Source: Thermodesulfobacteriota bacterium
Lineage (GTDB): Bacteria > Desulfobacterota > Desulfobulbia > Desulfobulbales > Desulfocapsaceae
DNA length: 51,682 nucleotides
NCBI GenBank assembly: GCA_039715055.1
Contig: JBDLID010000004.1
Coordinates: 1-51,682, forward strand
Direction of reading: 5' to 3'
Each line of letters begins with the position of its first letter. Within the stretch, counting starts at the first letter, position 1. Below, piece after piece: positions 16,274 through 43,085 of the stretch. Under the pieces are notes generated by a model. That model was not told the DNA's origin. It saw nothing but the letters and a program-made list of their open reading frames with translations, and ran no database searches. The position numbers were made by a program, and so were the translations under genes.

Positions 16274-16366
16274 CTCCCTACTCTGTCGAAAAAATTAATC
16301 CTGTATTCAATTATTAAATACCATGACTGAGTTTGGTGGGTAATCACCGTCCCATCCGGACGCTGC

Positions 16367-24907: not shown

Positions 24908-25765
24908 TCAAAAGCGCTCTACAATTATTTCTCGAGCCACGCTCATGAAGGCATGCAGTGCTGCAGTTTCAACATTGTTGACATGGGTTAATATTCCAAC
25001 TCTTCCCTCGCTATTTTCAAGAGGAACAGAGTTGATATGAGGCGCTATGTGGGGCAGGGCCGATACTGACTCAGGCAGCAGACTGACTCCAACACCGCCA
25101 ATGATACATGCCAGAACAGCATCCATTCCTTTTAAAGTCAATTCCCTGGTCACATTGACCTGTAAATGATTGAGGTGCTCGTACAGTATCCGCCGATACT
25201 GGCTTGCCCTTGAAAAGGTCAATGTGGTCACCTCTGCTTGAGCGGAAAATTCGTAATCTACGCCGTGGACCAGCATCAACTTTTCCGGTCTGGAAAATCC
25301 ATAGTTGAGTTTGGGGTGTGCTATGGAAATATCTGTAAGCGCACAGTCCAGCTGATGGTTCAATAACTGTGCAGTCATGGTTTCGACAAAGAGCGACTGC
25401 ACATTGATCTCCACTTCAGGGTAGTGCTTGATAAATGCTTGAAGAATTTTTGGTAACCATGCAGTTGCAGCAGTCTGGGAAACTCCTATATTCAGGAGGC
25501 CGGAGATTTCATTTTGTGAGAATCTGGTTTCAGTGTCCTTTGCCAGTCGAACAATCTGTTTTGCCTGCCCTATGAGTTCACGACCATTGGCGGTAAGGGT
25601 CACCCCCCTGTTCTCACGGTAAAACAGCTGTGCATCAAGAGTGCTTTCCAGCTTCTTAATCCGGGCAGTCACATTGGGCTGAACACAGTTGAGCTTTTCT
25701 GCAGCCCGTGTAAAACCGCCGCTTTCCACAACCGTAAGAAAGACCATCAGGTCATAGATCTCCAT
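24908..25765 (-). CDS. LysR-family transcriptional regulator, divergent from the GNAT/DapF-like unit.
   Basis: The HTH begins the protein (MEIYDLMVFLTVVESGGFTRAAEKLNCVQPNVTARIKKLE), followed by an LTTR substrate-binding domain. The start was set at the internal ATG at 25765; the ORF-track extension to 25936 lacks homology. Confidence 0.85.
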   Translation of the reverse strand: MEIYDLMVFLTVVESGGFTRAAEKLNCVQPNVTARIKKLESTLDAQLFYRENRGVTLTANGRELIGQAKQIVRLAKDTETRFSQNEISGLLNIGVSQTAATAWLPKILQAFIKHYPEVEINVQSLFVETMTAQLLNHQLDCALTDISIAHPKLNYGFSRPEKLMLVHGVDYEFSAQAEVTTLTFSRASQYRRILYEHLNHLQVNVTRELTLKGMDAVLACIIGGVGVSLLPESVSALPHIAPHINSVPLENSEGRVGILTHVNNVETAALHAFMSVAREIIVERF

Positions 25766-25924
25766 GTCATCACCATTTTTGATTGATTCATAAAAATTGA
25801 TTATTTGAAACAATATCACGAGTTGACCATAGTTCAAGTAACTGATCAACAAAAGAACAAAAGGGTGGAAAGGTGCTTTTCCGGTGAAAGAACTGCCCCC
25901 TGACAGCAACGGAGAGCCACAGTT

Positions 25925-26329
25925 ATGGAAATACAATACCGGACGACACAGTCGTTTGAGCGTTCACAGTTACAGCAGTTGTTTCTCGCGGTGGAGTGGT
26001 CTTCCGGCAACTATCCGGACAGGTTGCAGACTGCCATGAAAAATGCTGACACGGTATTTTCTGCTTGGGATGGCACCAAACTGGTTGGGCTGATGCATGC
26101 TGTTTCCGATGGTGTTATGACAGCATATTTCCAATATTTACTCGTCCACCCGGATTATCAGTCGAGAGGAATTGGCAATGCCCTTGTCACCGCAATGCTT
26201 GGTAAATACAAGGACTGCGCCCGTAAAGTGCTGATAGCCTATGACAAGGAAATTGAATTTTATAAGAGTTGCGGTTTTCTGGTCGGACATGGCAAAACAC
26301 CAATGTTCATCACCTACCTGTCAACATGA
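25925..26329 (+). CDS. GNAT-family N-acetyltransferase.
   Basis: Acetyl-CoA-binding motif A-like sequence (YQSRGIGNALV), 134 aa. The stop overlaps the next gene's start (ATGA). Confidence 0.75.
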   Translation: MEIQYRTTQSFERSQLQQLFLAVEWSSGNYPDRLQTAMKNADTVFSAWDGTKLVGLMHAVSDGVMTAYFQYLLVHPDYQSRGIGNALVTAMLGKYKDCARKVLIAYDKEIEFYKSCGFLVGHGKTPMFITYLST

Positions 26330-27180
26330 AATTTACAAAATATCATGCACTGGGAAATGATTACCTGGTGATCAACCCGCAAGAACTGGCATCTGAGCTG
26401 ACAAGGAAGGCCATCACTCTTCTCTGTCACAGAAATTTTGGTGTGGGATCAGACGGCCTTCTGCTTGGTCCGCTGAAAAGTATGCGATGTGATTTCGGCT
26501 TGAAAATATTTAATCCCGATGGAAGTGAAGCGGAAAAGAGCGGCAACGGGTTGCGTATTTTTGCGCGCTGGTTGTGGGATGAAGGTCGCGTTGGTACAAA
26601 ACCGTTTAGTGTGGAAACAGACGGCGGGATCGTATCCTGCACTGTCGAAGATGATGGCAGAAATGTTACAGTTGAAATGGGAGAGGTCATTTTTGAGCGA
26701 ATCAACGAGACAATAGCGGTTGAAGACCAGGTCATGACCATCTGTACCGCATCTGTTGGTAACCCTCACTGTGTTGTCCTCTCCGAGCTCCCAACCGCAG
26801 CGCTGGCTCAAAAGTATGGTCCAATTATTGAAGTTGATCCACTGTTTCCAAACCGTACGAACGTGCAGTTCATACGTGTCATTGATCGCAATACCATCCA
26901 GCTTGAAATCTGGGAACGCGGGGCTGGCTATACGCTCGCCTCGGGCAGCAGCAGTACCGCAGCAGCGGCAGTTGCCTACAAGCTTGGTTTATGCGACCCG
27001 GATATCACTGTTCAGATGGTTGGGGGAGAAATCGAAATAGAGTTGAATGAAGCATTTCTTGCTACAATGCGAGGTCCGGTAATCAAGGTATGCAATGGCG
27101 TCATAGCAGATGAGATGTTTGAAACACTCGTAACAATTCAGCAGCACCCACATTGTGGCCGATCAGGCCGCCTCGAGTAG
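26326..27180 (+). CDS. Diaminopimelate-epimerase (DapF) family protein in which both catalytic cysteines are replaced by serine.
   Basis: N-terminus [17 protein letters not shown] matches DapF [38 protein letters not shown] matches [42 protein letters not shown] matches [20 protein letters not shown]. The start is at the ATG at 26326. Confidence 0.75.
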   Translation: [284 protein letters not shown]

Positions 27181-27250
27181 CACAAGTGCGCTTCGTCAGC
27201 CTGCTTGACCACACTGCATGCCCTGCTGAACAGTTACAAACACTCTTACA

Positions 27251-27739
27251 ATGATCAGAGCAGCAATTAAGGGCGAGGCCACAATTCTCACCAGAATCTC
27301 ATTTGAATCCAAGGGGCACTGGAACTACCCCAAAAAATATTTTGATATCTGGGAAAGTGAACTGACGATACGACCTGACGATATTGTGGAAAATCACGTC
27401 TATGTCGTAGAAAACAATGGTGACATCGTAGGATATTATTCAGTTACTGAACTCCGCCAGGATAGGCAACTATTCGAGATGAAGTTAGAAAAAGGATTCT
27501 GGCTTGAACATATGTTTGTGCTCTCCTCCAATATCGGTCAAGGCTTTGGGACAGAGATGTTTGAGCATCTCCGAGAATGGTGTAAATCACACCGGGTGAA
27601 CAGATTGTTCATTCTTGCAGACCCTAACGCCAAAGGATTTTACGAAAAAATGGAGTGTGAATATCAGGAGGATTTTCCTTCTACTGTCGCAAATCGGACG
27701 ACACCGCTTTTCACCTTGGACATTGAACCACAGGAGTAA
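27251..27739 (+). CDS. GNAT-family N-acetyltransferase.
   Basis: GNAT motif A is GQGFGTEMF, 162 aa. Confidence 0.7.
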   Translation: MIRAAIKGEATILTRISFESKGHWNYPKKYFDIWESELTIRPDDIVENHVYVVENNGDIVGYYSVTELRQDRQLFEMKLEKGFWLEHMFVLSSNIGQGFGTEMFEHLREWCKSHRVNRLFILADPNAKGFYEKMECEYQEDFPSTVANRTTPLFTLDIEPQE

Positions 27740-28011
27740 GGCCGGGATGGCGCAGCGTAGCTCATCATGACAATGAAAGGCCAGAGAAGCAAGGTATGTG
27801 ATGGAAATATTTCGGCTGAAATTTTTAACACAAGTTGAGTAGGATAGGTATGAGAAGAAAAGATAAGGAAATCACTGACAGATCTGTTATCGAGACCATT
27901 ATTTCCAATTCAACTGCCTGCAGGGTACCTTGAGTCGTTACTGATCTGACTCAGCAGATATCCCGCACCCGGTCCTGAACTGCGCCAAAGAAAACCCGGA
28001 AGTTACTGACA

Positions 28012-28413
28012 ATGGAGAAAGCAATGAATCAAATTGATTTTTATGAGGCAAAACTAAAATACGAAACTGATTCCTGGGATTTATCAGAAGCCTTGAAAAA
28101 CAATGACAACGTGGTCGTAATCGATGCACGGTCGATAGAAGCGTATGAAATCGATCATATCCCCTCAGCAATCAGCTTTCCTCACAGGACCATGTCCGAG
28201 AAAACAACTGTCAATCTGGACAAATCAAAAACATATGTCACCTACTGTGATGGAATAGGCTGCAATGCGTCTACAAAGGGCGCGGCAAACCTTGCCAGAC
28301 TCGGTTTTAACGTAAAGGAACTTTTGGGCGGCCTGGAGTGGTGGAAAAGAGATGGGTATGCAACTGTTGGGAAAAATGGCATTGAAGGCAAGAGCACTGC
28401 TTGCGGCTGCTGA
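28012..28413 (+). CDS. Single-domain rhodanese-like sulfurtransferase.
   Basis: Rhodanese fold with an active-site Cys loop (YCDGIGCNASTKGA), 133 aa. Confidence 0.7.
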   Translation: MEKAMNQIDFYEAKLKYETDSWDLSEALKNNDNVVVIDARSIEAYEIDHIPSAISFPHRTMSEKTTVNLDKSKTYVTYCDGIGCNASTKGAANLARLGFNVKELLGGLEWWKRDGYATVGKNGIEGKSTACGC

Positions 28414-28786
28414 CAATGGTGGAATAATAAGAATTAAGGTGGCCGTCGGGCCTGACCGGAAACTGGCAATTACGCCTGCGGGCCGGGGAGTACTGTCCGG
28501 TCAGAAAAAATGGCTGGCGATTGAAGAATATGACAGATGGCTCGGAGGAGTTCATCTGTCATATACCAATACCTGGTGTTGGGACGAGACTGTAAAATAA
28601 ATTGTGTAAATGAGTATCGCTTGGTCTGAGTCCGGAATTCTATATATCTATCCATTAACTCTATTTATCCGCAGTACCCTTCTTTCAAATCATCCTCGCC
28701 TCCTCCAGATTTTTTCAACACCGGAAACATTCTCCCTTGTTACAACCTTAGCTACACTTGTCAATCGGAAGAGATCATTTACCCCC

Positions 28787-28815
28787 TTGACAAATTAGAG
28801 TAATTGCTCTAATTA
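28787..28815 (+). promoter_or_regulatory. Sigma70-like promoter TTGACA-N17-TAATTA. A perfect palindrome TTAGAG-TAATTG-CTCTAA (28795-28812) overlaps it and is a candidate operator upstream of the B12-rSAM gene.
   Basis: Hexamers and the 6-bp inverted arms were read from the sequence, about 45 bp upstream of the rSAM ATG, which has a GGAG SD. Confidence 0.4.
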
Positions 28816-28858
28816 TTTCTCCAGCTAAGATCCCAACTCAATACAGCCGGAGAATATC

Positions 28859-30217
28859 ATGCGAATTCTACTCATTCAGCCAGCAAGCAGCATTGGATTC
28901 ATAGATCAGGTTTATATGCACGAACCTTTAGCTTTAGAATATCTTGGGGCCGGCCTGAAATTGGATGATCATGATGTTCTATTATTAGATGGTCGTATCG
29001 ATACAGATCTATTATCCAGAGGGCAAGAGTTCCAGCCTGATATCGTCGCACTGACCGGCTATACCAGCCAGGTGAACATCATCATAGAACTTGCTCGAAA
29101 ATTCAAAGCCATCTCCCCTGCCCCTTTCGTGGTTGTCGGTGGGCATCATGCCACTGTTCGACCAGTTGATTTCAATCTCCCTGCCATTGATCTGACGGTA
29201 ATCGGCGAGGGGGTGACGACACTTAGGGAAATTGCCGGTAAGCTTGCAGCAAGACAGGATTTCAATGCTGTTGACGGATTGGCTATTCCCGGAGACAAAC
29301 AACGGTTCACCCGGGCACGCCCACACTGCAGCCTCAATGATCTTCCAATGCCTGATCGTTCCCTGACGGCCCGCTATCGAAGCCACTATTTCAGTGAATG
29401 GCTGCAGCCTCTTGCCTCTATCCGAACTTCACTGGGATGTGTTGGTCGTTGTAATTTCTGTGCGCTATGGTCACTCACCGACGGCAGATACCTGAAGCGA
29501 AATCCGGAGAAAGTCATTGAGGAGCTTAAAACAATAAATGAAAAGAACGTTTTCTTCTGTGATGATGAATCAATGTGTGACGTGAAGAGAATGGAAATAT
29601 TAGCTGATCTGATACGCGAAAATGGAATTAAAAAGCATTATTTTCTCTATGCCCGGGCAGATACCGTAGTTCGCCATCCGCAACTGTTTGAAAAATGGCG
29701 GGATGTGGGGTTGCGCCAGGTATTTGTTGGAATGGAGAGTTTCTCAGATTCGCATTTGCAGGCGATGAACAAGGGAATCACCTTAGAGCAACAAGAAGAA
29801 GCCGTACATGTCCTGAGAGAGTTGGGGATAATGCTTTATGCTTCTTTTGTTGTAGATCCTGACTTTTCTCATGAGGACTTCGGATCTCTGACACAATATG
29901 TACGTCGTTTACAGCTGAACCATGCCTCCTTTTCAATCCTGACACCGTTACCCGGGACAAAGATGTGGGAAGAACGACAAAATGATTTACTTCCATACCG
30001 TCCGGAGCTGTTTGATTTTATCCATACAGTTCTACCGACTCGGTTGCCGTTTCCTGAATTTTATACCGAATTTGCCCTTCTCTGGCAAAACGCTGTCCCA
30101 CCATATCGTGCACTCAAGACTTTCTCTCGCTATGGCCTGAAGAGATTGCCTGGAGTCTTTCGGCTCTTAAGCAAGGCAACATCAACCATGCGCCGGGCAC
30201 ATCTGGACCACTGTTAG
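28859..30217 (+). CDS. Cobalamin (B12)-binding domain radical SAM enzyme (class B rSAM).
   Basis: A B12-binding Rossmann-like N-terminus is followed by the CxxxCxxC radical SAM motif (CVGRCNFC), 452 aa. Confidence 0.85.
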   Translation: MRILLIQPASSIGFIDQVYMHEPLALEYLGAGLKLDDHDVLLLDGRIDTDLLSRGQEFQPDIVALTGYTSQVNIIIELARKFKAISPAPFVVVGGHHATVRPVDFNLPAIDLTVIGEGVTTLREIAGKLAARQDFNAVDGLAIPGDKQRFTRARPHCSLNDLPMPDRSLTARYRSHYFSEWLQPLASIRTSLGCVGRCNFCALWSLTDGRYLKRNPEKVIEELKTINEKNVFFCDDESMCDVKRMEILADLIRENGIKKHYFLYARADTVVRHPQLFEKWRDVGLRQVFVGMESFSDSHLQAMNKGITLEQQEEAVHVLRELGIMLYASFVVDPDFSHEDFGSLTQYVRRLQLNHASFSILTPLPGTKMWEERQNDLLPYRPELFDFIHTVLPTRLPFPEFYTEFALLWQNAVPPYRALKTFSRYGLKRLPGVFRLLSKATSTMRRAHLDHC

Positions 30218-30230
30218 AAAATCGGCTACT

Positions 30231-30845
30231 ATGCTGCCGATGACAGCAAAAGCCAAAATCAAAACGCGTGAGAAAATCCTGGAGAAAGCTTTACAGCTCT
30301 TTAATGAAAGAGGAACTGCTGCGGTGACGACAAACCACATCTCCGCAGCCATTGGTATCAGTCCAGGCAATCTCTACTACCATTTCCACAATCGTGAGGA
30401 GATCATTCGAGAGATATTCTCTATGATGGAGGAAGAAAGTCGTGAAGGTTTCGGGCCTATTGCATCTGAGGCTCATGGACTCGGCCTTCAGGCGTTTGAG
30501 GAAACTTTCCGATTCATCCAGCAATTCAACCAACGCTTTATATTCTTTAAAAGAGAGTTGCCGATACTGCTGATGCGTGACCCTGAACTGCGAGTGAGTT
30601 TTGAAAAAGTCCACCAGGAGACCCTGGAGCTGATTCGTACTCTTGTCGATGGTGCTGTTGCCGGAGGGATATTGCGTCCACTTGAAACTGAGGAGAGACA
30701 ACTGCTCACCGAGATGAGTTGGATGCTGACTCTTTTCTGGCCCAATTATCTCGAAATATCAGGCCAGGACAATTCTCAAGAGGGGCTTGAACGTGGAATC
30801 GCCATGATCCGATTACTTGTCAATGGGTTTAAAGCAGGTGAGTAA
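30231..30845 (+). CDS. TetR/AcrR-family transcriptional regulator.
   Basis: N-terminal TetR HTH (LFNERGTAAVTTNHISAAIGISPGNLYYHF), 204 aa. Confidence 0.85.
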   Translation: MLPMTAKAKIKTREKILEKALQLFNERGTAAVTTNHISAAIGISPGNLYYHFHNREEIIREIFSMMEEESREGFGPIASEAHGLGLQAFEETFRFIQQFNQRFIFFKRELPILLMRDPELRVSFEKVHQETLELIRTLVDGAVAGGILRPLETEERQLLTEMSWMLTLFWPNYLEISGQDNSQEGLERGIAMIRLLVNGFKAGE

Positions 30846-30857
30846 GAAGTAACGATC

Positions 30858-31268
30858 ATGGCAAATTCTCTACTATCCGGCGAAACCAGCCTCACAACAC
30901 TACTGCAGAGTATGAATCCAGTACTTCGCCCAGGGGAGTTTGTCTTTTGCTCCATCGATCCGGACGCAGTTGCCGGCCTTTCCGGCACGCCCATTTGCCA
31001 GTTTACCGAAGAAGAGGGGCTGACGGTCATCATGCAAAAAGAAGACGCCGAAAAGAGCAGCCTGCAATATGGTTATGTTTCTAAAATGATCACCATAGGC
31101 GTTCACTCAAGCCTTGATGCAGTGGGATTTCTTGCCGCGATAACCGGTAAATTGGCAGCACATGGCATCAGCGTCAATGCGGTTTCAGCATTTTATCACG
31201 ATCACCTCTTTGTTCCGCCTGACAATGCCGATGAAGCCATGGAAATTTTAAATAGTCTGTCAAAGTAG
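30858..31268 (+). CDS. ACT-domain-containing small regulatory protein.
   Basis: The C-terminal ACT-like fold pattern is ITIGVHSSLDAVGFLAAITGKLAAHGISVNAVSAFYHDHLFV. Confidence 0.55.
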   Translation: MANSLLSGETSLTTLLQSMNPVLRPGEFVFCSIDPDAVAGLSGTPICQFTEEEGLTVIMQKEDAEKSSLQYGYVSKMITIGVHSSLDAVGFLAAITGKLAAHGISVNAVSAFYHDHLFVPPDNADEAMEILNSLSK

Positions 31269-31516
31269 AGCCGCAATCACTGTCCCCTCCATCCACCAAA
31301 GAAGCTCACTGTTTTACCTGGGAGAACTGAGTTCAAAAAACAGCGCCGGAAAATATTCATACCTGGCCCGGACCTGTTCTTGCTAAATTCATAGCTTCGC
31401 CTCAAGTTATTGATTATTATTATGTCACTCAGCAGCTGATCGTACAGGCTTGAAATGATAGTGATCATCCCGGATTTTTCGTTTTCAAGGTAGCCTTAAA
31501 CCAATTGAGGTTTCTC

Positions 31517-32152
31517 ATGACTCTTCTGACCACCACCATCAAGCACATGCGGCAGGAAAAGGCATGGCAGAACAAACATAACCCCAAGGCCCCTAAAGAG
31601 GGTGACTCTGCACCGGATTTTGAGCTGCTGGCTGTTGACGGTACTACGCCTTTTCGTCTATCTGATTATCGCAGCAAAAAACCGGTGGCCCTTGTTTTCG
31701 GCTCTATTTCCTGACCCCCCTTTGTTAAAGGGACCGTGAGTCTCGGACAACTGTTCAAACGATATCAGGACCAGGTTCAGTTTGTTATGATCTACATCAG
31801 GGAGGCGCACCCGGTGGATGGCTGGACTTTCGGCCATGGAATAATGGCCGGAATGATCCAGTCATATGCTCCGCATACAAATTTTGAAATCCAGGATCCT
31901 CAAACAATCGAGGAAAGGCGTCGCATAGCCGACAGTTGTCAGGCCAAACTCCAGTACGGCTTCACGACCATTGTTGATGAAATGGACGACAGGGTCAACA
32001 AACTCTATGCCGCTCAACCAACTCGGCTCTATCTCATCGGCCTGGATGGCAAAGTCGCCTATGGTGGTGGAGGCGGTCCGCTGGGATTCAAGCCGGCCAG
32101 GCTTGGCGAGGCAATAGAGAGTTACCTGGAAGAACAACAGAAAGTATCTTGA
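31517..32152 (+). CDS. Deiodinase-like (thioredoxin-fold) selenoprotein with an in-frame UGA (Sec) at 31712-31714. The two ORF-track entries 31505..31714 and 31736..32152 are one gene.
   Basis: Both ORFs share a frame and are separated only by TGA, with no other stop until 32152. The motif KPVALVFGSIS-U-PPFVKG matches the iodothyronine-deiodinase active site FGS(A/C)T-U-PPF. The start is set at ATG 31517 with a GAGG SD. Confidence 0.7.
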
Positions 32153-32226
32153 TCGTGGGTCTAAGGCAGGTGAGTAACAACAGGAGCTGGAGTAAGGTTG
32201 CGTTCACCTGTCTGCCGAGTATGACA

Positions 32227-34656
32227 TCACGACCGCAAATGGCCAGTGGCCAATTTGTGAAAAACAGATTCAACAGCTTCAGGGACAAATGGTTTTGAAA
32301 GGTAGGCATCCATACCCGCTGCCAGACATTTTTCTTTGTCACCACTCATGGCATTTGCCGTCATGGCGACAATAGGAACGTGGCCACCGGATAGGCGGGA
32401 AGCGAGTTGCATGGCCAGATCCTCTACCACCCCTTCCACCTGATTTCCGCATTCTGCGTCACGGATAATTCTGGTACAGGTCAAGCCATCCATCACCGGC
32501 ATCTGTACATCCATTAAAACCACATCATAATTTTGTTTTGCCAGTAAATTCAGCGCCTGCAGGCCGTCATGAGCCTCGCTGATGCGGTGATCATTTTTCT
32601 CCAGAACCATTCTTGCCAGAATCATATTTGGTTCGTTATCATCCACCAGCAATACAGATTGGGGAGGAACCGGTCCTTTTTCACTGGATCCTTTCCTGGA
32701 ACTGGCAGGTAACTCCCTGACATCACATGGTTGAAGGCAGAGGGTAAACATGAATGTGGAGCCCAGGGAAGAGCTGCCTGCCAGCTCGATATCTCCCCCC
32801 ATAAGGTGGCACAATTCCCGACAAATCGCCAGACCGAGACCTGTACCACCGAAAATTGTGGTTATGGAGCCGCTTTCCTGGATAAACTTACCAAAAATAT
32901 TTTCCTGCTCATCAATCCCGATACCTATGCCGGTATCCTGGACAAGACATTGAAGCAGAAGCGATCCATCAGGCAATGTCGAACTATCAACAAAAAGTTC
33001 GATATATCCCTGCTCTGTAAATTTAACACTGTTGCTCAGCAGGTTGAGCAGGATCTGTCTCAATCTCAGAGCATCGCCTATGGCTGCCTGTGGAACATCC
33101 GGAGCAATTGTGCATCTCAGTTCCACCCCCTTATCCGTGTCTTCCAGAAGGACATGGATGGTTTTAAGACACGTCTCAACAGTTTCGTGGAGATCAAAAG
33201 GTTTATTGTCAATTCTCAGCTCCCCGGCCTCAATTTTTGAGAAATCAAGGATATCACTGATCAAAGCCAGGAGATTATCAGCCGAACTGGAAATCATTTC
33301 CAGATGGGATCGGGTTTCCCGGTCAAGTTTGTTATCAAGCGCTAAACGAGTCCGGCCAATGATCGAATTCATGGGGGTACGTATCTCATGGCTCATATTG
33401 GCAAGAAAACTTGATTTTGCCTGACTGGCTGTCTCGGCCTCGTCCCTGGCCTTCCGAAGTCCTGTCTCTGCCTCCTTAAGCCATGAAATATCAGAAACCA
33501 TTGCAATGGACCCGATTTTTTTGCTCTGAGCATCATAGAGTGGAATGGCATTAACCAGGCATGGAACCAGTGAACCGTCATTTTTAGATACACTGATCTC
33601 ATAGGATCCCTGTTTACCAAGGTCCCTTTGAGTGCGCTCCTCCGTCAAAATGGCCTGGTTCTCATCATCCAGAAACTCCATGATTGAATGTCCGACAATA
33701 TCTTTCTCTTCTCGCCCGAAGATCTCTGCCAACCTGGGATTGATCTTTTCTGTAATGGCTTCGTTATCCCCCTGCCAGAAGCCCTGGGTAGAGGTTTCAA
33801 GAATAGAGGTCAACTGATTAGTTGTTAGCTGTAAATCCCGGGTACGGGCCTCCACCATTTTTTCAAGGTTGCGACTGTATGTCTTGTTTTGAGAAGAGAA
33901 TTCCAGCAGTGAGGAGGACATCCGGTTAAATGAATCGGTGAGTTTACCGATTTCATCAGCCGATGAAACAGGAATCGATACACCAAATTTTCCGTGAGCA
34001 ATATCTTCTGCATAGTCGGCCAAGGCAACAATTGGCCGGGTAATTCTCCTGGAAACAAAAAGGCAGGTGAGACAACTGAGAAGAACGATAATGAGACCAA
34101 CCCTGAGATTGTAAACGATAATATCTTTTTTCTGGCGACTGATGCTCTCCAGCGAACCGCCAAGAGAAATCATCCAGGTTTCATTGCCGATAGCAATGGG
34201 TTCAGTTATCAGAAAAGTTGTCTGGTCAAGAAGAGACAAGCCTGGCTTCTCACACTGTCGTTTGTGATCGCTGGACTTTTTCAAGCAATTTACTCTCTCG
34301 TCCTGACCTCGACCAATGTAGACCTCATGATCGGGGTTAAGAATGGTCAGCCAGAGAACCTCTTCCGACTGTATTTCACTGTCGAGTAATGTTTCGATAA
34401 AATCCCAGTTCAGTGTGTAAAAAGCACTCTGTACAGCAAAGGCGACCTGCTTGGCAATCGTCTGGTTGCGGTTGAGCAGATCCTGTCGCTTGGAGCTTGT
34501 AAGACTATGGATGGAATGCCATGAGAGCGCACTTATGGAGACGATGAGGATAAGAACGATGGGAAGGAAAATACGTAAAAAGAGCTTGCCCTGTCGTTTC
34601 CTGTCTGGATTGGAACTTTTTGTCATTGTGAAAGCTTTGCGAGCAATAATGGCCAA
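32227..34656 (-). CDS. Hybrid sensor histidine kinase/response regulator: transmembrane, HAMP, PAS, HisKA, HATPase_c and REC.
   Basis: The H-box is MSHEIRTPMNSIIG. ATPase motifs include GTGLGLAICREL. The C-terminal REC has VLLVDDNEPN...DVVLMDVQMP. Confidence 0.85.
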   Translation of the reverse strand: MAIIARKAFTMTKSSNPDRKRQGKLFLRIFLPIVLILIVSISALSWHSIHSLTSSKRQDLLNRNQTIAKQVAFAVQSAFYTLNWDFIETLLDSEIQSEEVLWLTILNPDHEVYIGRGQDERVNCLKKSSDHKRQCEKPGLSLLDQTTFLITEPIAIGNETWMISLGGSLESISRQKKDIIVYNLRVGLIIVLLSCLTCLFVSRRITRPIVALADYAEDIAHGKFGVSIPVSSADEIGKLTDSFNRMSSSLLEFSSQNKTYSRNLEKMVEARTRDLQLTTNQLTSILETSTQGFWQGDNEAITEKINPRLAEIFGREEKDIVGHSIMEFLDDENQAILTEERTQRDLGKQGSYEISVSKNDGSLVPCLVNAIPLYDAQSKKIGSIAMVSDISWLKEAETGLRKARDEAETASQAKSSFLANMSHEIRTPMNSIIGRTRLALDNKLDRETRSHLEMISSSADNLLALISDILDFSKIEAGELRIDNKPFDLHETVETCLKTIHVLLEDTDKGVELRCTIAPDVPQAAIGDALRLRQILLNLLSNSVKFTEQGYIELFVDSSTLPDGSLLLQCLVQDTGIGIGIDEQENIFGKFIQESGSITTIFGGTGLGLAICRELCHLMGGDIELAGSSSLGSTFMFTLCLQPCDVRELPASSRKGSSEKGPVPPQSVLLVDDNEPNMILARMVLEKNDHRISEAHDGLQALNLLAKQNYDVVLMDVQMPVMDGLTCTRIIRDAECGNQVEGVVEDLAMQLASRLSGGHVPIVAMTANAMSGDKEKCLAAGMDAYLSKPFVPEAVESVFHKLATGHLRS

Positions 34657-34668
34657 TACGGTGGGAAG

Positions 34669-35535
34669 TTAAGCCAGGATTTTTTCACCGGGCTGAGCAA
34701 CCAGTACCTGGATCTGGGGGTTTACTTCTGCCATCCTGGTAAGAAACCCTTTGGCATCAGGCTCAAGAACTGGGAAAGTGGAGTAATGCTCCGGAATAAC
34801 AACCGAAGGGCGGATCATTCCGCAGGCATGGGCTGCCTCTTTCGGCCCCATGGTGAAAACCCCGCCGATGGGAAGGATCGCCAGGTCAGGCTGGTAAAAA
34901 TCTCCGACCACATATTTCATATCAGCCATGAGCCCGGTGTCTCCGGAGTGATAAATTTTATATCCATTTTCGAATTCCAGGATATAGCCGACGGCCCTGC
35001 CCATGAATTTATTCATTCCGGTAAAATTTGTCAGCTGGGCACCGGATGAATGTTCTGCTGTCACCATGGAAATTTTTATACCATGGTAATCGTGTGTTCC
35101 CCCGACATTGGAAAGCTGGTAGGTCATGCACTTGGCTGTGGGAATCTCCTGCTTGGTAAAAATGGATAATTCCCAGGGAGCAATGACGTCAGGGGAATAT
35201 TTAGCTATGAGCTTTTTCACATCAGACAACATAAAATGATCCACATGGCCGTGGGTAAAAAGGATCAGGTCAACCTTGTCAAAACCGTTAAACGATCTGT
35301 ATTCAGAGGGTAATTTAGGATTTGTGCTGATCCATGGATCGAGCAGGATCACCTTTCCCTGTGGTGAGGTAAATTTAAAAGAACCATGGCCAAGCCACTC
35401 TACCTGGACCTCTTTCTTTCCTTGAAAAGGTTGTTTCTGCGAATCCTGCTTACCACCAAAGGCCAGTTTCGGTAAACCAAGCGCCGCCATACTCAAACAA
35501 AGAGAGGAGAGAAATTCTTTTCTGGTCAATTGCAT
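34669..35535 (-). CDS. MBL-fold metallo-hydrolase with an N-terminal signal peptide.
   Basis: The metallo-beta-lactamase motif HxHxDH is present (LFTHGHVDHF). A signal-like N-terminus is present, 288 aa. Confidence 0.75.
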   Translation of the reverse strand: MQLTRKEFLSSLCLSMAALGLPKLAFGGKQDSQKQPFQGKKEVQVEWLGHGSFKFTSPQGKVILLDPWISTNPKLPSEYRSFNGFDKVDLILFTHGHVDHFMLSDVKKLIAKYSPDVIAPWELSIFTKQEIPTAKCMTYQLSNVGGTHDYHGIKISMVTAEHSSGAQLTNFTGMNKFMGRAVGYILEFENGYKIYHSGDTGLMADMKYVVGDFYQPDLAILPIGGVFTMGPKEAAHACGMIRPSVVIPEHYSTFPVLEPDAKGFLTRMAEVNPQIQVLVAQPGEKILA

Positions 35536-35882
35536 ATTGTTTTCTCCTTGTCCTTTCCAAAAGGGAATTTTTCAAGGTGCCCTGTAGTCTTTGAATTATC
35601 TGATAATTCTCCAGGTGGTCGCCAAATGTCTCCATTCATTATAAAATGAATAGTTTCAGAAAGATAAACTCGGGTTGGGGGAAGAATCGAGGCTATGATC
35701 TTCAGGCATCAAGACATGTGCAACATGTCGGCATGTCTTCCGATACCCACTTTATTTAACAAATTCTCTCTTGAATATCCATTTCATTCACCAGCTGACA
35801 AAAATTACCATTCAGATTGTGTTTCAAATTATGCCTTTTTTACCCATATTATTTAATTCACCCGGCACTGGCAGCTGGAAAC

Positions 35883-37937
35883 TCACCAGACCCTATTGAT
35901 AACTTTCTTTATTGCCTGAACCTGTTCAGCACTTTGTTCACTTTTTAAGGTGACAAAGGATAAGGGGAAGGCAAATTTCTCCTGTTCCCAGACCACCAGG
36001 CTTCCCTCTGCAGCATGTTCTCTTGCCTGATCTTCGAGCATGAAATTAAGCCCCACTCCAGATTTTATCAAACTGAGAATAGCTGCTTCATCACTGGCCG
36101 CAATGACCCGTTGAGGGAAGAAGCCCCGATCATAAAAGATATCGTCCATCATTTGACAGTAGGGACATTCCGCTGGATTACCGATCCAGGGAAGCTCTGC
36201 CAGATCTTCATATTCAGCATTCATAATCTTGTCAGCCATCTGGGATGGTCCCACAATTCGCAAATAAAGGGTAACCAGGTGTTGAACCACGAACCTGTCA
36301 TCATCACAGGTTCCAAAAACAAAACCGCCATGCAACTCACCGCTTGCGATAAGCTTCAGGATATTACCGGAAATGGACTGATGAAACCGCAGCACCATTT
36401 CTGTATCTCCAGGGGAGAAATTCTGAATAACTTTTTCAATCTTAAGAAGTTCGGGGTCACAGTTCAATCCAACCACCACCTCTTTGCCGATTGGTACATT
36501 ACTGAGCCTTTTTGGAGGTTTAATCAGTGAATCAGCCAGCTTACCAAGTGCTTCCATGCCCTGTTCAAGTCTGTCACTCCAGGGATGACCATACGATAAC
36601 CGAATACAATGGTCATACTGGCCACTACCTGAGCAGAGCGTACCCGGCATTATGGCAATATCCTCCTTTTCCGCCAGGCGAAACAGTTCAAGGCTGTCCA
36701 CATTGCCCGGCAACTCTACCCAGAGGCTCAGTCCTCCTCTTGGAGACGATATCCGGGTACCCGGGGGAAAGTAGCGAACAATGGCCTGGCTCATGTCTGC
36801 GGCCTGTCTGCGAAGACTGGTTCGCAGTTTCCGCAGGTGACGGTCATATCCACCGGTCTCCAGAAAGTTGGCAAGAGCATGCTGCATAAGCTGAGAGCAT
36901 GCAATGGAGTTGTTGAACTTGAACCGTTTTACTTTTTCCCGGTATTTCCCGGCCAGAAGCCAGCCAAGCCTCATGTCCGGCAGGAGAGCCTTGGAAAACG
37001 AACTACAGTAGAGCACCATTCCCTGACTGTCAAAGTGTTTAAGAGGGAGAGATTTGGACTCTCCAAAGTAGAGATCGCCGTAAATGTCATCTTCAATGAT
37101 TGGTATGCCCCGTTCACTGAAGAGTGCAACCAGGCCCCGTTTGGCAGACTGCTCCGTATCAAACCCCAACGGGTTCTGAAATGTTGGATTGAAAAGGGCG
37201 GCACGAATATCATGCTCATCAAGTGCGTTACGAATTGTATGTAAATCCAATCCGCTGGACGGGTCTGCCGGAATTTCAAGGGCCTGCATGTTGAGGTCTT
37301 CAATCAACTGGAGGTAACAGAGAAAGGTGGGAGATTCCATCAGGATGATGTCCCCTGGTCTTGCCACACTTCTCAAACAAAGCTCGATACCGCTCATGCA
37401 GCCCTGGGTCACAATAATCTCACTGCCGCATTCCCTGTGGGGAAGATTCAGGGAGCGCTTGGCAATCCCTCGTCTCAGCTTTTCAAGCCCTGCAGAAGAT
37501 CCATAACCAACACTGACCCCATCCTGATATCCAGCAGCGGCAGTTCGTATGGCTGCAGCCATCTGCTTTCCCGGTAGAAGAGACGGCGCTGCAGTGGCCT
37601 CACCAAAAGGTATCAGGTCAGGATTGTCCAGGGATCGTTGAATGAGGGAGGACAGCACATTGATTGCCACCTTGTGTGATTTCACGGGAGAAGTGGACTG
37701 ATTTGGTAAGGGGAGGATATCTCGCAGCAGAGGTTTTGCAAAAAATCCCGACTTCTCTCTTACTTCAACCAGTCCACGGTTCTCCAACTCTTCATAGGCC
37801 TGATAAATGGTGGAGATTGATCTGCCTGTGGCGGCCTTAAGCTTTCGCAACGACGGAAGTTTCTCTCCGGCTCGATAATCACCTGCTTGAATCTGTCTTT
37901 CCAGTTTGTTGGCCAGTTGTACATAGTGATATTCCAT
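35883..37937 (-). CDS. MocR-like regulator (GntR-family HTH plus class I/II aminotransferase-like domain) with an extra C-terminal LysR-type substrate-binding (PBP2) domain.
   Basis: There is a GntR winged HTH at the N-terminus and an aminotransferase fold in the middle. The last ~200 aa show the LTTR effector-domain pattern (ILKLIASGELHGGFVFG...LRIVGP...VIAASDEAAILSLIKSGVGLNFM). The ORF is 684 aa versus about 480 aa for a typical MocR. Confidence 0.8.
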   Translation of the reverse strand: MEYHYVQLANKLERQIQAGDYRAGEKLPSLRKLKAATGRSISTIYQAYEELENRGLVEVREKSGFFAKPLLRDILPLPNQSTSPVKSHKVAINVLSSLIQRSLDNPDLIPFGEATAAPSLLPGKQMAAAIRTAAAGYQDGVSVGYGSSAGLEKLRRGIAKRSLNLPHRECGSEIIVTQGCMSGIELCLRSVARPGDIILMESPTFLCYLQLIEDLNMQALEIPADPSSGLDLHTIRNALDEHDIRAALFNPTFQNPLGFDTEQSAKRGLVALFSERGIPIIEDDIYGDLYFGESKSLPLKHFDSQGMVLYCSSFSKALLPDMRLGWLLAGKYREKVKRFKFNNSIACSQLMQHALANFLETGGYDRHLRKLRTSLRRQAADMSQAIVRYFPPGTRISSPRGGLSLWVELPGNVDSLELFRLAEKEDIAIMPGTLCSGSGQYDHCIRLSYGHPWSDRLEQGMEALGKLADSLIKPPKRLSNVPIGKEVVVGLNCDPELLKIEKVIQNFSPGDTEMVLRFHQSISGNILKLIASGELHGGFVFGTCDDDRFVVQHLVTLYLRIVGPSQMADKIMNAEYEDLAELPWIGNPAECPYCQMMDDIFYDRGFFPQRVIAASDEAAILSLIKSGVGLNFMLEDQAREHAAEGSLVVWEQEKFAFPLSFVTLKSEQSAEQVQAIKKVINRVW

Positions 37938-38070
37938 GGTCTCACCCTGACACTGCGCAATCTGTTATGGTTGTTTTTTTATATTTCTGCATCTGTTCCT
38001 ATCTAGCATCTTAACTATTATGAAGTAAAGGGAAAAAATAACAGATCAGGAAGTTAAACCGGGAGGAAAG

Positions 38071-38268
38071 GTGATGAAGGTAGAGAGATTCAAAGAGAAT
38101 TTATGTTGGCTGATGTGCCCTGAAGACAGCAGTGTCCTGGAGGAAGAATGGATGAGAAACTACTCCTTCAATCAAAATGCAAAGGAATCTCTATTGTCGG
38201 TTATCAAGTTTCTCCTCTGGTACGCGATATCCGTTGTCATGGCTTTTATTCTGGCCGGGCTGGACTAA
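38071..38268 (+). CDS. Small hypothetical protein (65 aa) with a C-terminal transmembrane helix, divergent from the MocR-like regulator.
   Basis: ORF with a hydrophobic C-terminus (LLSVIKFLLWYAISVVMAFILAGL). No homology was recognised. Confidence 0.3.
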   Translation: MMKVERFKENLCWLMCPEDSSVLEEEWMRNYSFNQNAKESLLSVIKFLLWYAISVVMAFILAGLD

Positions 38269-38321
38269 AAAATTTTCTGTACCGGTTTATGGATACGGAA
38301 CACATCCACAGGTGATACAAG

Positions 38322-38843
38322 ATGATTAGACAAGCGACAGGCACTCTCAACAGAGAAACTTACAACAACGATTCAGCAGATCAAAAAAGACTGTTAGCAG
38401 ATGTAATCAAATGGTTTAATACTGTATCGGAGATCCGGGAAAGATCACCAGCAATTTTAACCGTCCACAGAGACACGGGATTTGGCAATCAACTGACAAG
38501 CACTGTTACCTGCGTGGAAGAAGCTGTCCATATTCCACGGGGGCTGCGAAACTTCAGGAGTAAACCACAATTTGACCTCGTTTTTTACTCACCTCTTCAT
38601 GGTGCTGAAAACCTGGACCATCTCTTAGAAGATTTCTGCTACTGCCGGATGCTGTTGAGACCCGGCGGATTCATTTTTTTTAGAGCAGAGCCCGATGCAC
38701 CCTGGTGGGCCAACTGCTGGTTTAGCGGAGCAGGCAAAGAAAAGATGTCCTGGCTTCGGCAGGCAGGATACATGAAGGTCATGAGGACAAAAATTGGTAC
38801 TGAGATGGTTGTCTGTGGGCAACGACCACTACCGAACTATTAA
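38322..38843 (+). CDS. Hypothetical protein with weak methyltransferase-like features.
   Basis: 173-aa ORF with an LLRPGGFIFF-type motif. No confident family assignment. Confidence 0.4.
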   Translation: MIRQATGTLNRETYNNDSADQKRLLADVIKWFNTVSEIRERSPAILTVHRDTGFGNQLTSTVTCVEEAVHIPRGLRNFRSKPQFDLVFYSPLHGAENLDHLLEDFCYCRMLLRPGGFIFFRAEPDAPWWANCWFSGAGKEKMSWLRQAGYMKVMRTKIGTEMVVCGQRPLPNY

Positions 38844-39034
38844 CCCGCATTTATCATCAAAAACTATTAGGGTAGCGGTAAACACTGCTTCAGAAACAAA
38901 CATTTTTTCTGATCTTCTGAACAGAAAGTCCTTCGATAACGTCTGCAGGACAATTAACAGGTAGTTTCTCACACCCGCAGACCATTACGCTTTCTAAACA
39001 ATACTATTACCACCTCCTGCCAAATGGGTTCGCT

Positions 39035-39814
39035 ATGAAAATGAAGCTCTACCAAATTGATGCCTTTACTGATCAACTCTTTTCTGGGAATCCGGCTGCA
39101 GTCTGCCCCCTTGACGACTGGCTGTCCGACGACTTGATGCAGCAGATAGCCCTGGAGAATAATCTGTCGGAGACAGCTTTTTTTGTGTTTCGCGATGGCG
39201 AATATGAGCTTCGCTGGTTCACTCCGGCAACAGAGGTTGACCTGTGTGGCCATGCCACCCTGGCCTCCGCATATGTGATTTTTAATGTTTTGAATTATGA
39301 TTCCGGACAAATCATCTTTAATACCAGAAGCGGCCAGCTGGTGGTGGGCAAACAAAAAGACTTCTTCTCCATGGATTTTCCATCACAGCCTCCCACCGCC
39401 TGCGAGGTTCCGCCAAACCTTATCGCTGCTCTCGGTGTGCAACCTGAAGAGGTACTGTCTTGTGAGGATCTCCTTGTCGTTTTCCAATCGCAAAACGATG
39501 TGGAACAATTGACTCCTGTTTTCAATTTATTGAAAAAAATTCCCCAACGAGGAGTGATTGTCACCGCGCCGGGCAACGATGCTGACTTCGTATCGCGCTG
39601 CTTTTTCCCAAACCTGGGAATCAACGAAGACCCTGTTACGGGTTCTGCCCACTGCACATTAACACCTTATTGGGCCAAACGACTGGACAAGACGGAACTG
39701 GAAGCTCACCAGGTCTCTTCCAGGGGTGGAAAACTGCGATGCAAAATTGATGGGTCAAGAGTGGTGATGTACGGACAAGCGGTCAAATACCTGGAAGGGT
39801 TGATCGAGATTTAA
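39035..39814 (+). CDS. PhzF-family (phenazine biosynthesis-like) isomerase/epimerase-fold protein.
   Basis: PhzF signature N-terminus (LYQIDAFTDQLFSGNPAAV...LSETAFF), 259 aa. Confidence 0.85.
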   Translation: MKMKLYQIDAFTDQLFSGNPAAVCPLDDWLSDDLMQQIALENNLSETAFFVFRDGEYELRWFTPATEVDLCGHATLASAYVIFNVLNYDSGQIIFNTRSGQLVVGKQKDFFSMDFPSQPPTACEVPPNLIAALGVQPEEVLSCEDLLVVFQSQNDVEQLTPVFNLLKKIPQRGVIVTAPGNDADFVSRCFFPNLGINEDPVTGSAHCTLTPYWAKRLDKTELEAHQVSSRGGKLRCKIDGSRVVMYGQAVKYLEGLIEI

Positions 39815-39839
39815 CCTGCCAGGGCGAGATGATGCAGAA

Positions 39840-41393
39840 TCAATCTCCACCTTTTTCGGATTGAACCACCTCATCATACTCTTCGGGAAAGTGTTCCTGA
39901 GCACATTCCGGACAGATAGCGTGGCTGATATCAGCCTGGGAGTGGCTTCGAATAAATGTATCTACCTGTTGCCAATAACCTTCGTCATCACGTATTTTTT
40001 TGCAATATGAGCAGAACGGCAGAATCCCTTTTAAGGTTTTAATTTCGACTATTGCTTTTTCCAGTTCAAGGATAACCTCCTCTTTTTTCTCTTCTGCCCT
40101 TTTTCGCTGTTTTACTTCAATACTTAATTCATCTCTTGAAGCCATGGTTTTGTGGAGATTTTCCGACATATTGTTCAATGATTGTGCCAAAGACCCTATT
40201 TCATCACCAGAAAGCACATCTGCTCTTTTTTCAAGATTACCTTCACCAATGACTTGAGCAGTTTCTGCCAATTTCACTATGGGACTGGCAACCCATTTTC
40301 CCAAAAGCAAAGAAACAAAAGCGGTTAATATAGTGATCAAAATTCCGGAAACAAGAATTAACAGTGTTGTTTGATCAATAGCCTTTTCGGCTTCTTCTTT
40401 AGCCATACATACAAGAACATGCCAACCTTCACCTAAATTCCCTTTAATGTGGTCGATGGATTCTTTACTGCCTCCAAAACCAAATTTATCCGATCCCATT
40501 GTTATTCGAATGGGAGAAAAAGCAGCTAACCAGTCATCATTGCTTCCCGAGACAATTATGGTACCGTTTTCTTTTTTATGTAACTGCTCCAGATGTGCAT
40601 CGTTAACTTTTGTAGATAAGGGCACGATGCCCTGTTCGGCTACTATTAACCCACCGGTGCGTACTATTCTTAATTTGCCGCTATTTCGCTGACTAAACTC
40701 CTGGATGACATCGGTCAACGGTCCCATAATATTGACATTGCTTTTCAAAATTCCAATAATCTCATTATCATTCATTATTGGAATAACCACTCCGAGAACA
40801 TACCCCCCAACACTCGTATCAAAACCACGGTCATCCAGAAAAACTCTGCCCTTACCATTATCAAAGCACGCTAGCCACCAGTATTTATGAGCATGGGCAA
40901 GAGTTGTGAGTTTTCCAGTTGTAGCGACCATCACCCCGTAACGATTAGTAAGAAATATTTCACCGTACTCCTTTGGTAAAATTACCTGCTGTTTTTTTAG
41001 ATAGTCAGCAGCAGGGTTGAACATGTGCTCCTGAACAAAAGGGTCGTTGATGTCAACTGCGTTCTTCCATTGTTTGTTGAGTCGGTCAATCTCTTGCTCT
41101 CTTTGTGCATCTGAAAATGCGGCAAATTCAGAATTACTCTTCAGCAGAGTATTTTTAATAAGAGGTGAAGAGGAAAGAGTCGTGGCAATTTTTGTCTTTT
41201 CTGTGAGGCGGGAATCCAAATGTAACGCAACTTCTTGTGCAATATTTTGCAATCTTTGCAGCTCCTTGCCTTGAAGAACTCTATGACTGTACATGTCATA
41301 TCCTACTGAAAGCAGGAGTAATATGACAACTCCGAACAAAGTCATTATGATCGAAGCTTTATACTGTAGCTTCATAATTCTCCCCATTTGCAA
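39840..41393 (-). CDS. Membrane sensor: TM, Cache-like periplasmic domain, TM, HAMP, coiled coil and a C-terminal Cys4 (CxxC...CxxC) module. No kinase, MCP, GGDEF or other known output domain is present.
   Basis: Two TM segments flank a ~300-aa periplasmic region. The HAMP sequence is SPIVKLAETAQVIGEGNL...IGSLAQSLNNM. The C-terminal module is FCSYCKKIRDDEGYWQQVDTFIRSHSQADISHAICPEC. Confidence 0.7.
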   Translation of the reverse strand: MQMGRIMKLQYKASIIMTLFGVVILLLLSVGYDMYSHRVLQGKELQRLQNIAQEVALHLDSRLTEKTKIATTLSSSPLIKNTLLKSNSEFAAFSDAQREQEIDRLNKQWKNAVDINDPFVQEHMFNPAADYLKKQQVILPKEYGEIFLTNRYGVMVATTGKLTTLAHAHKYWWLACFDNGKGRVFLDDRGFDTSVGGYVLGVVIPIMNDNEIIGILKSNVNIMGPLTDVIQEFSQRNSGKLRIVRTGGLIVAEQGIVPLSTKVNDAHLEQLHKKENGTIIVSGSNDDWLAAFSPIRITMGSDKFGFGGSKESIDHIKGNLGEGWHVLVCMAKEEAEKAIDQTTLLILVSGILITILTAFVSLLLGKWVASPIVKLAETAQVIGEGNLEKRADVLSGDEIGSLAQSLNNMSENLHKTMASRDELSIEVKQRKRAEEKKEEVILELEKAIVEIKTLKGILPFCSYCKKIRDDEGYWQQVDTFIRSHSQADISHAICPECAQEHFPEEYDEVVQSEKGGD

Positions 41394-43013: not shown

Positions 43014-43085
43014 TATTAACCTGCCTGAAGATGGGAACGTAAAGCCACGGTCTTAATTGATTAGCGGTTCCCTTAGCATTGATGG

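Follow-up and report, generated by a model that had tools for sequence, protein, structure and literature searches.

Deiodinase-like selenoproteins of bacteria were first reported in 2005 from the Sargasso Sea metagenome, in both selenocysteine (Sec) and cysteine forms, together with a bacterial selenocysteine insertion sequence (SECIS) and the suggestion of a generic redox role (Zhang, Fomenko and Gladyshev, 2005; PMC1088965). They were counted again in the Global Ocean Sampling (GOS) data in 2008 (PMC2398784), and reviews of 2022 and 2026 list them with their function given as unknown and with a "UxxC" motif for the family exemplar (PMC9312934, PMC13188914). The gene described here is located at positions 31517-32152 of a 51,682-nucleotide stretch of contig JBDLID010000004.1 (assembly GCA_039715055.1; the whole stretch that was analyzed is referred to below as the window) from a sulfate-reducer-type Thermodesulfobacteriota bacterium of the family Desulfocapsaceae, and encodes a predicted deiodinase-like selenoprotein. 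As the family has been reported since 2005 and appears in all subsequent surveys of prokaryotic selenoproteomes, the locus is to be regarded as a further member of a known and computationally defined group; with it a selenoprotein family that has been an orphan for 20 years gains a member from the Desulfobulbales, and no new category is opened. The view taken in the initial annotation of this DNA, that bacterial proteins of this type are known from computation only and have no known substrate, agrees with the published record (PMC1088965, PMC2398784, PMC13188914), and a literature search for an assayed bacterial deiodinase homologue found none. The present comparison defines the SECIS of this clade precisely and shows the catalytic core of the deiodinases to be without variation between bacteria and mammals, unlike the hormone-binding residues.

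The gene and its in-frame UGA

On the plus strand positions 31517-32152 translate in a single frame of 211 codons followed by a TGA stop, and the sole internal stop is a second TGA at 31712-31714, where direct translation gives KKPVALVFGSIS before the stop and PPFVKGTVSLGQLF after it. The list of open reading frames (ORFs) breaks the gene at this point into two pieces of the same frame, 31505..31714 and 31736..32152, just as the initial annotation had described. Its warning that naive annotation would yield two fragments is justified by the public gene callers, which split the gene, and by the database matches, most of which are C-terminal pieces of about 135 residues. Judged from sequence comparison, the two ORF fragments very probably make up one intact gene, the complete coding sequence (CDS) of a soluble thioredoxin-fold enzyme of the deiodinase family of approximately 24 kDa (PF00837; mouse Dio3, 4tr3), with Sec at residue 66 and Cys141 as the candidate resolving residue. 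In annotation the locus should be entered as one selenoprotein CDS, with 31712-31714 marked by a transl_except.

The product is predicted at about 23.7 kDa, soluble and without a transmembrane segment. A Shine-Dalgarno-like GAGG, read from the sequence at 31507..31510 (plus strand), lies 6 nt upstream of the ATG at 31517, and the start codon of homologues is found at the equivalent position. Kyte-Doolittle hydropathy, averaged over 19 residues, reaches a maximum of 1.26 in the whole protein and of 0.17 for segments starting at residues 1-40, and in the AlphaFold model the N-terminus is a polar helix (residues 2-24). Animal DIO1-3 carry an N-terminal transmembrane anchor; as no hydrophobic segment is present in the protein, it is without an anchor of this kind. 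A promoter and terminator scan around the gene on the plus strand returned nothing above shuffle expectation.

The position of the UGA (31712..31714, plus strand, residue 66) was compared across 84 homologous loci, 80 of which came from a genome scan with one genome per species and four from metagenome contigs. The aligned codon is TGA in 80/80 genome loci and in 4/4 metagenome loci, across at least six phyla and with the frames intact on both sides. The closest genome loci belong to metagenome-assembled genomes (MAGs) of Desulfocapsaceae, with 62-67% identity, and the four metagenome contigs hold the closest relatives of all (76-81%); most of the 80 loci are from Anaerolineales or other Chloroflexota, with Marinimicrobia, Zixibacteria, Actinomycetes, Latescibacteria and others also represented. 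A profile search of 1.84 billion cluster representatives identified 6340 family members at E <= 0.001, and among the best 150 of these, which were inspected, the column aligned with the TGA holds Cys in 126 and Trp in four (TGA read as Trp), while 17 sequences start after it. The occurrence of Cys in distant representatives at the position where the close loci have TGA constitutes the classical Sec/Cys signature, for which the initial annotation had proposed to look. Measured against the nearest relatives, the ratio of nonsynonymous to synonymous substitution rates (dN/dS) falls at 0.05-0.19 on the upstream as well as the downstream side of the TGA, values which indicate purifying selection on both halves. 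Within the window TGA is the commonest true stop, ending 17 of the 35 Pfam-supported genes (the deiodinase-like gene's own stop included), and an internal TGA is present in just one of the 35, the deiodinase-like gene; the organism thus uses the standard code and the TGA at 31712-31714 is exceptional. From this pattern of conservation we consider it almost certain that the UGA is decoded as Sec.

Two other readings of this codon have to be weighed against Sec decoding. The TGA could be a true stop, leaving either a pseudogene or two separate small genes of 65 and 138 residues; this is how public gene callers annotate the locus, it would suit the predominance of C-terminal fragments of about 135 residues among database hits, and the Sec machinery is not seen in the window. 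Against it, however, the TGA is found at the identical codon in 84/84 loci, which span many phyla and have open frames on either side, a finding which also speaks against the two halves being independent genes, the case in which the initial annotation would have fallen. Furthermore both halves are under purifying selection, neither alone would make a thioredoxin fold, the Pfam and Dio3 alignments are continuous across the TGA, and homologues have Cys at the Sec position, so that a true stop is extremely improbable. Scarcely more credible is decoding of the UGA as something other than Sec, that is as Trp under translation table 4 or 25, or as Trp or Cys by near-cognate read-through. A protein search of 5.8 billion proteins identified 386 relatives, and among the matches listed nearly all are fragments of about 135 residues beginning just past the TGA position; a few "full-length" public homologues show Trp exactly at the Sec position (P0001-P0004, P0008 and P0087, and also P0126, P0134, P0215 and P0258), and it is these that would favor decoding as Trp. 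The entries with Trp come, however, from short contigs and are best explained as artifacts of gene callers applying a TGA = Trp code, and homologues without TGA carry Cys, never Trp, at the aligned residue. In addition the TGA-ended genes of the window, none of which other than the deiodinase-like gene has an internal TGA, are at odds with an alternative code, and simple read-through would give no role to a hairpin that is conserved, has G-U in its loop and lies at SECIS distance. The readings as a pseudogene, as two genes or under an alternative code are rejected on the strength of the TGA conservation, the selection on both halves and the Sec/Cys pairing, and Sec decoding is retained. In the public databases the family is represented by hundreds of truncated pieces about 135 residues long, together with artifactual Trp versions.

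Some further features of these sequences were noted. At codons 63 and 65 (31703-31711, just 5' of the UGA) synonymous sites are constrained by about 1 bit in 84 sequences, Ser being encoded as AGY and Thr as ACC, which may reflect a context effect on UGA recoding. In one Chloroflexota MAG (L073; JABMQN010000151.1, ~10307-10309) a second TGA replaces TGG after the DGW motif (GAC GGC TGG TGA CTT); the gene is otherwise intact and L080, a close relative, reads TGG, and the second TGA arose either through a nonsense mutation not long ago or through an error of assembly. Deiodinase-like domains are also found duplicated in one protein, or fused to large N-terminal regions of no known kind (P0121, P0122, P0130, and many representatives of 400-900 residues).

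The SECIS element

The bacterial SECIS model specifies a loop of 3-9 nt, a stem of 4-16 bp, a G in the first two loop positions, a distance of 16-37 nt from UGA to loop and an energy limit of -7.5 kcal/mol (PMC13188914). When 79 sequences were anchored on the UGA, the third-codon positions located 21, 24, 27, 30, and 33 nt from the U of the UGA showed 1.1-1.6 bits of conservation, as compared to 0.02-0.4 bits at other four-fold sites nearby. When the 54 conserved degenerate codons of the whole gene are compared, codons 72, 73, 74, and 76 (GGG ACC GUG ... CUC) stand out most, with 1.2-1.7 bits, and almost all of the remaining ones have no more than 0.6 bits. On the basis of synonymous constraint, pairing and compensatory changes, the conserved SECIS core is assigned to GGGAC-CGUGA-GUCUC at 31730..31744 (plus strand), in which 31730-31734 (GGGAC) pairs with 31740-31744 (GUCUC) to enclose an apical loop at 31735-31739 (CGUGA). 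The first stem base lies 15 nt and the start of the loop 20 nt past the UGA.

The stem consists of 5 bp in the window and of 6 bp in many homologues. In the family alignment pairing is seen in 96.9% of cells for the 5-bp core and in 89.8% for the 6-pair version (nt 18-23 with 29-34), and the observed pairing and covariation score of the latter was reached by 0/500 shuffles. Compensatory changes have occurred at three pairs, GC to UA and AU to GC, for example from G-C to U-A in L061 and L065. Within the loop G31736, at loop position 2, is present in 79/79 sequences and U31737 in 71/79. If folding over 60 nt is constrained to contain the core hairpin, the best structure has -9.3 kcal/mol in the window and -7.5 kcal/mol or lower in 59/79 homologues. 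The hairpin can be extended by a lower stem at 31722..31750 (plus strand), where 31722-31726 pairs with 31746-31750 across an AAA/G internal loop; this gives -7.2 kcal/mol in the window and is the minimum-free-energy structure in the relative L081. The lower stem (nt 11-15 with 35-39) was also considered as a family-wide feature and rejected, only 31.9% of cells being paired, and it is described here as lineage-specific, confined to the window and its nearest relatives.

An SECIS-like hairpin 3' of the UGA, as anticipated in the initial annotation, is therefore present, but the comparison places it at 31730-31744, between the two candidates that had been put forward. The first of these, CCCUUU-GUU-AAAGGG, does exist as a hairpin, at 31718-31732 rather than at 31717-31732; it has -6.1 kcal/mol, forms part of the minimum-free-energy fold of the window and overlaps the real SECIS. 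Its pairing is retained in 71.0% of cells as against 71.1% in shuffles, and it does not qualify as the SECIS. The second, CAAAC (31756-31760) with GUUUG (31780-31784), keeps all five pairs in 2/79 homologues and was likewise discarded. Folding of the single sequence 31700-31790 is no better than that of shuffles (z +1.4), and for this reason thermodynamics alone cannot locate this SECIS. At its gathering thresholds Rfam matched nothing in the window, and with E <= 10 it gave only noise near the UGA.

Active site, second cysteine and possible substrates

The family assignment suggested by the initial annotation was supported by a profile search, in which Pfam PF00837 (T4_deiodinase) matched residues 18-202 with 103.2 bits (gathering cut-off 27; E 1.7e-29). 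In a phmmer search of the PDB the best match was 4tr3, the catalytic domain of mouse Dio3 (E 9e-22), followed by the Dio2 structure 9h48 (E 4e-15). The AlphaFold model (predicted template modeling score, pTM, 0.78) retrieved the same two structures as the top two in Foldseek, followed by ResA/DsbE, Bcp/PrxQ, and 1-Cys peroxiredoxin (Prx). Matches to PF00578 (AhpC-TSA, 28.5 bits, cut-off 26) and PF08534 (Redoxin, 28.3 bits, cut-off 26.6) are marginal and limited to residues 27-100. The NCBIfam model NF038285 (deiodinase_rel, 347 residues) was matched with 179.9 bits at its positions 175-341, which is below its cut-off of 250.

A residue census was carried out on 85 aligned sequences, with Dio3 numbering and residue roles according to PMC7506546. 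The active-site motif F61-G-S-I-S-U66-P-P-F69 (31697..31723, plus strand) corresponds to F-G-S167-C168-T169-U170-P-P-F of Dio3 in the alignment to 4tr3, and the deiodinase motif recognized in the initial annotation holds across the family as S-x-S/T-U-P-P-F: G62, T/S65, U66, and P68 are found in 85/85 sequences and S63 in 84/85, and the residue at U+3 is F or Y in 85/85 (F in the window). Together with the PF00837 and Dio3/Dio2 matches, this motif bears out the placement of Sec at the catalytic position of a thioredoxin-fold protein of the deiodinase family. The second motif, Y93-I-R-E96-A-H98-P-V-D-G-W103 (31793..31825, plus strand), contains the counterparts of Dio3 Tyr197, Glu200, His202, and Trp207, residues that hold the active site in place and stand at the beginning of the omega-loop (PMC7506546); Y93, E96, A97, H98, D101, G102, and W103 are invariant in 85/85. 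The Dio3 residues that are kept thus comprise Ser167, Thr169 (as Ser/Thr), Sec170 and the following Pro-Pro-Phe/Tyr, and further Tyr197, Glu200, Ala201, His202, Asp205, Gly206, Trp207, Arg225, Arg260, Gly276, and Pro277. Other residues of Dio3, among them His219, Cys239, Glu259, and Arg275, which have been implicated in the binding and turnover of iodothyronine, are replaced: His219 by Pro128 (Pro in 82/85), Cys239 by Phe149 (Ile/Val/Phe in the family), Glu259 by Thr169 (Thr in 82/85), Arg275 by Gly186 (Leu in 63/85, Leu/Gly in the family), and Tyr257 by Trp or Gln in the family. This census indicates that the core which determines the chemistry has been kept and that the part which grips the amino-acid tail of thyroid hormone has not. 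A long and partly conserved aromatic-rich insertion (residues 99-128) is located where the Dio enzymes build their substrate pocket.

The candidate resolving cysteine is Cys141, encoded by TGT at 31937..31939 (plus strand) and present in 81/85 sequences; it lies in the helix after Arg134, the equivalent of Dio3 Arg225. Across the 84 intact sequences of the clade Cys141 occurs in 81 and a Cys at U-2 in three, and no sequence has both. These three (L001-L003, Desulfocapsaceae MAGs) read S-C-S-U, with the Cys at the Dio1/Dio3-type Cys168 position and Leu at 141, and the fourth sequence without a Cys141 count is L073, which is interrupted by its second stop codon. A wider census of the second Cys covered 130 distant representatives that span both regions: 99 have Cys at 140-142 only, five at -2 only, five at +3/+4 only, one at both +3/+4 and 140-142, and 20 have none. 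As the partner Cys relocates and is seldom duplicated, we infer that it acts as the resolving Cys in a peroxiredoxin-like cycle, a step to which the mutual exclusion of second cysteines points. A relocating Cys would also fit the selenenyl-sulfide step discussed for Dio3.

From these observations we infer a mechanism with Sec as nucleophile, Cys141 as resolving residue and recycling of the thioredoxin type. The in-CDS hairpin at 31730-31744, with G-U in its apical loop, would recruit SelB bearing Sec-tRNA(Sec), as its conservation suggests, and the UGA at 31712-31714 would then be read as Sec and not as a stop. In the folded enzyme the Sec66 selenolate would be positioned by a network of Ser63, Ser/Thr65, Tyr93, Glu96, His98, and Trp103, as in Dio3, and would attack an electrophilic substrate, becoming oxidized in the process. 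Like the resolving residue of an atypical 2-Cys peroxiredoxin, Cys141 would then convert the oxidized selenium into a selenenyl-sulfide, and a thioredoxin-type reductant may regenerate the enzyme.

Thyroid hormone is probably not the substrate, because the residues holding the amino-acid tail of iodothyronine are absent. The leading assignment, a tentative one given less than an even chance, is to halogenated aromatics, for example in the reductive dehalogenation of small halogenated phenolics. A peroxide or other redox substrate is about as likely, and what is left of our expectation falls to compounds outside both groups. On the redox account the gene and its Sec decoding are the same, and the product may be a selenol peroxidase or general thiol-disulfide oxidoreductase acting on peroxides or protein disulfides, not a dehalogenase; deiodination would in that event, which is conceivable but short of an even chance, be a later innovation in animals. 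Its attractions are that ResA/DsbE, Bcp/PrxQ, and 1-Cys Prx are the next structural neighbors after Dio3 and Dio2, that there are weak AhpC-TSA and Redoxin hits in Pfam, that a movable resolving Cys is typical of peroxiredoxins, that the iodothyronine-binding residues are not conserved, and that a generic redox role was proposed by the discoverers of the family (PMC1088965). Set against these, the Prx and Redoxin matches are limited to residues 27-100 and barely exceed their cut-offs, whereas features specific to deiodinases, namely EAHPxDGW at the beginning of the omega-loop, His202 and PPF following Sec, show no variation between bacteria and mammals, and the aromatic-rich insertion 99-128 sits at the site of the Dio substrate pocket. 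A more specific proposal, that the clade with U-P-P-F/Y and Cys141, which occurs widely among anaerobes of sediments such as Anaerolineales and Desulfobulbales, is a cytoplasmic, corrinoid-independent and selenium-dependent reductive dehalogenase of natural halogenated phenolics, is in our opinion unlikely. If dehalogenation were the true function, bromo- and iodophenols and halotyrosines would be the substrates, the activity would be the ancestral one behind the thyroid-hormone deiodinases of animals, and a dehalogenation route would be missing from current gene catalogs of organohalide cycling; a 2025 survey of organohalide cycling in the ocean does not mention deiodinases. The SECIS definition, the invariant core and the exclusion between second cysteines provide testable handles for assigning the substrate.

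Several points weigh against the interpretation of this locus as a Cys141-resolved selenoenzyme of the deiodinase family. In the literature no bacterial member of the family was found for which expression, 75Se labelling or activity is reported (PMC1088965, PMC13188914), and neither selA, selB, selD nor a tRNA-Sec was found in the 51.7-kb window by Rfam, ARAGORN and a Pfam survey. The conserved hairpin is short, its core alone having -4.9 kcal/mol, and a competing hairpin that is not conserved is thermodynamically preferred in the window. The exclusion between Cys at -2 and at 141 derives from few independent lineages; the -2 cases are small in number and cluster in the phylogeny. The Dio3 residue aligned with Cys141 is Leu232, in helix alpha-D. 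The 85 aligned sequences do not conserve Dio3 His219, Cys239, Glu259, and Arg275, and so give no support to substrate binding of the deiodinase type. Finally, the 84 other loci have no conserved neighbors, and hence provide no functional hint.

Genomic context and comparison with known systems

The gene lies 248 nt from an ACT gene and converges on a histidine kinase gene, and for these reasons it probably stands alone. Upstream are a rhodanese gene (28012-28413), a B12-radical-SAM gene (28859-30217, plus strand), a TetR gene (30231-30845, plus strand) and the gene of a tandem-ACT protein (30858-31268, plus strand); the last three (28859-31268) are tightly packed, with 13 and 12 nt between them, and have the appearance of a single operon. 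The initial annotation was right as to the presence of the rhodanese gene and of the B12-radical-SAM/TetR/ACT cluster, but a functional tie between them and the deiodinase-like gene did not hold, as each is beside such a gene in 0/84 other loci. A tblastn search of the window dapF, GNAT, rhodanese, radical-SAM, TetR, ACT, histidine-kinase, MBL, and GntR products against the 80 loci found no linked homologues, and in a clustering of ORFs within about 4 kb any one neighbor was common to at most 12/80 loci. The nearest relatives (76-81% identity) adjoin Mrp/Nuo-type antiporter, MreBCD or arginase genes. Since no neighbor is conserved, the rhodanese, radical-SAM, TetR, and ACT genes appear to lie next to this gene by chance.

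No tRNA-Sec was found beside the gene in 60 related loci, and neither an in-frame-TGA scan with open flanks nor a Pfam survey of 40 ORFs detected a further selenoprotein or sel gene in the window. The Desulfobulbales are generally known to use Sec, and the Sec machinery of the host is assumed from this lineage together with the fact that the gene is intact and under selection. The BipA encoded in the window shares 82-87% identity with its counterparts in Desulfocapsa, Desulforhopalus, and Desulfomarina, which places the DNA in a Desulfobulbales bacterium, and the window is an ordinary chromosomal stretch. Its G+C content is about 0.52 in the first 25 kb and 0.46-0.48 across 25000-45000, the deiodinase-like gene being located in the lower-GC part. 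Elsewhere in the window there is an SOS-mutagenesis-type cassette on the minus strand (11888-17841), composed of genes for a DnaE2-like pol III alpha (11888-14884), an ImuB-like Y-family polymerase (14887-16251), a DUF72 protein (16367-17230), and LexA (17227-17841). Also on the minus strand, positions 35883-37937 encode a 684-residue regulator with an unusual combination of a GntR helix-turn-helix, a class I/II aminotransferase domain (MocR-like) and a C-terminal LysR-type substrate-binding domain.

Among the systems already described, PrxQ/BCP and ResA/DsbE share with the window protein a thioredoxin fold whose nucleophile sits at the N-terminus of helix alpha-1, and they have a second, resolving Cys at a place that differs from one subfamily to another; unlike the window protein, they are without the EAHPxDGW motif and the deiodinase insertion. 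The C-terminal domain of NF038285 is homologous to the window protein, which lacks the N-terminal ~170 residues of that family, and members of the NF038285 type (FGANSCPPFS, 354-379 residues) have Cys in place of Sec, no Cys141 and no second conserved Cys at all. The relationship to the mammalian deiodinases is seen in the fold (Foldseek E 3e-11, 32% identity over 184 aligned columns) shared with mouse Dio3 (4TR3) and Dio2 (9H48) and in the common S-x-T/S-U-P-P-F motif. In contrast to these enzymes, the window protein has no N-terminal membrane anchor, its SECIS is in the coding region rather than in the 3' untranslated region, its omega-loop is 13 residues longer than that of Dio3, and thyroid hormones are not anticipated as its substrates. 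In comparison with the bSECISearch model and the minimal SECIS of Escherichia coli fdhF, the hairpin of the window is similarly placed within the ORF just 3' of the UGA, and with its loop of 5 nt, upper stem of 5-6 bp, G at loop position 2 followed by U, and spacing of 20 nt it resembles the bSECISearch model; it departs from that model in energy, even the lineage-specific lower stem bringing the core from -4.9 to only -7.2 kcal/mol, and from both in that the hairpin of the clade has no conserved bulged U.

The closest match is with the published bacterial deiodinase-like family, which shares with the window gene the PF00837 domain, an in-frame UGA paired with Cys in homologues, a SECIS directly downstream with a G in a small apical loop, and the bacterial context. 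The exemplar of that family has UxxC according to the review tables, whereas the window clade has U-P-P-F/Y, as in vertebrates, and its partner Cys is located 75 residues past the Sec (Cys141). Exemplars published with UxxC are MBO99264.1 and MFL2763324.1. Members of the window clade are mostly from Anaerolineales and other anaerobic sediment lineages, as opposed to the ocean-surface plankton of the published family. These differences from the published description of the family are modest.

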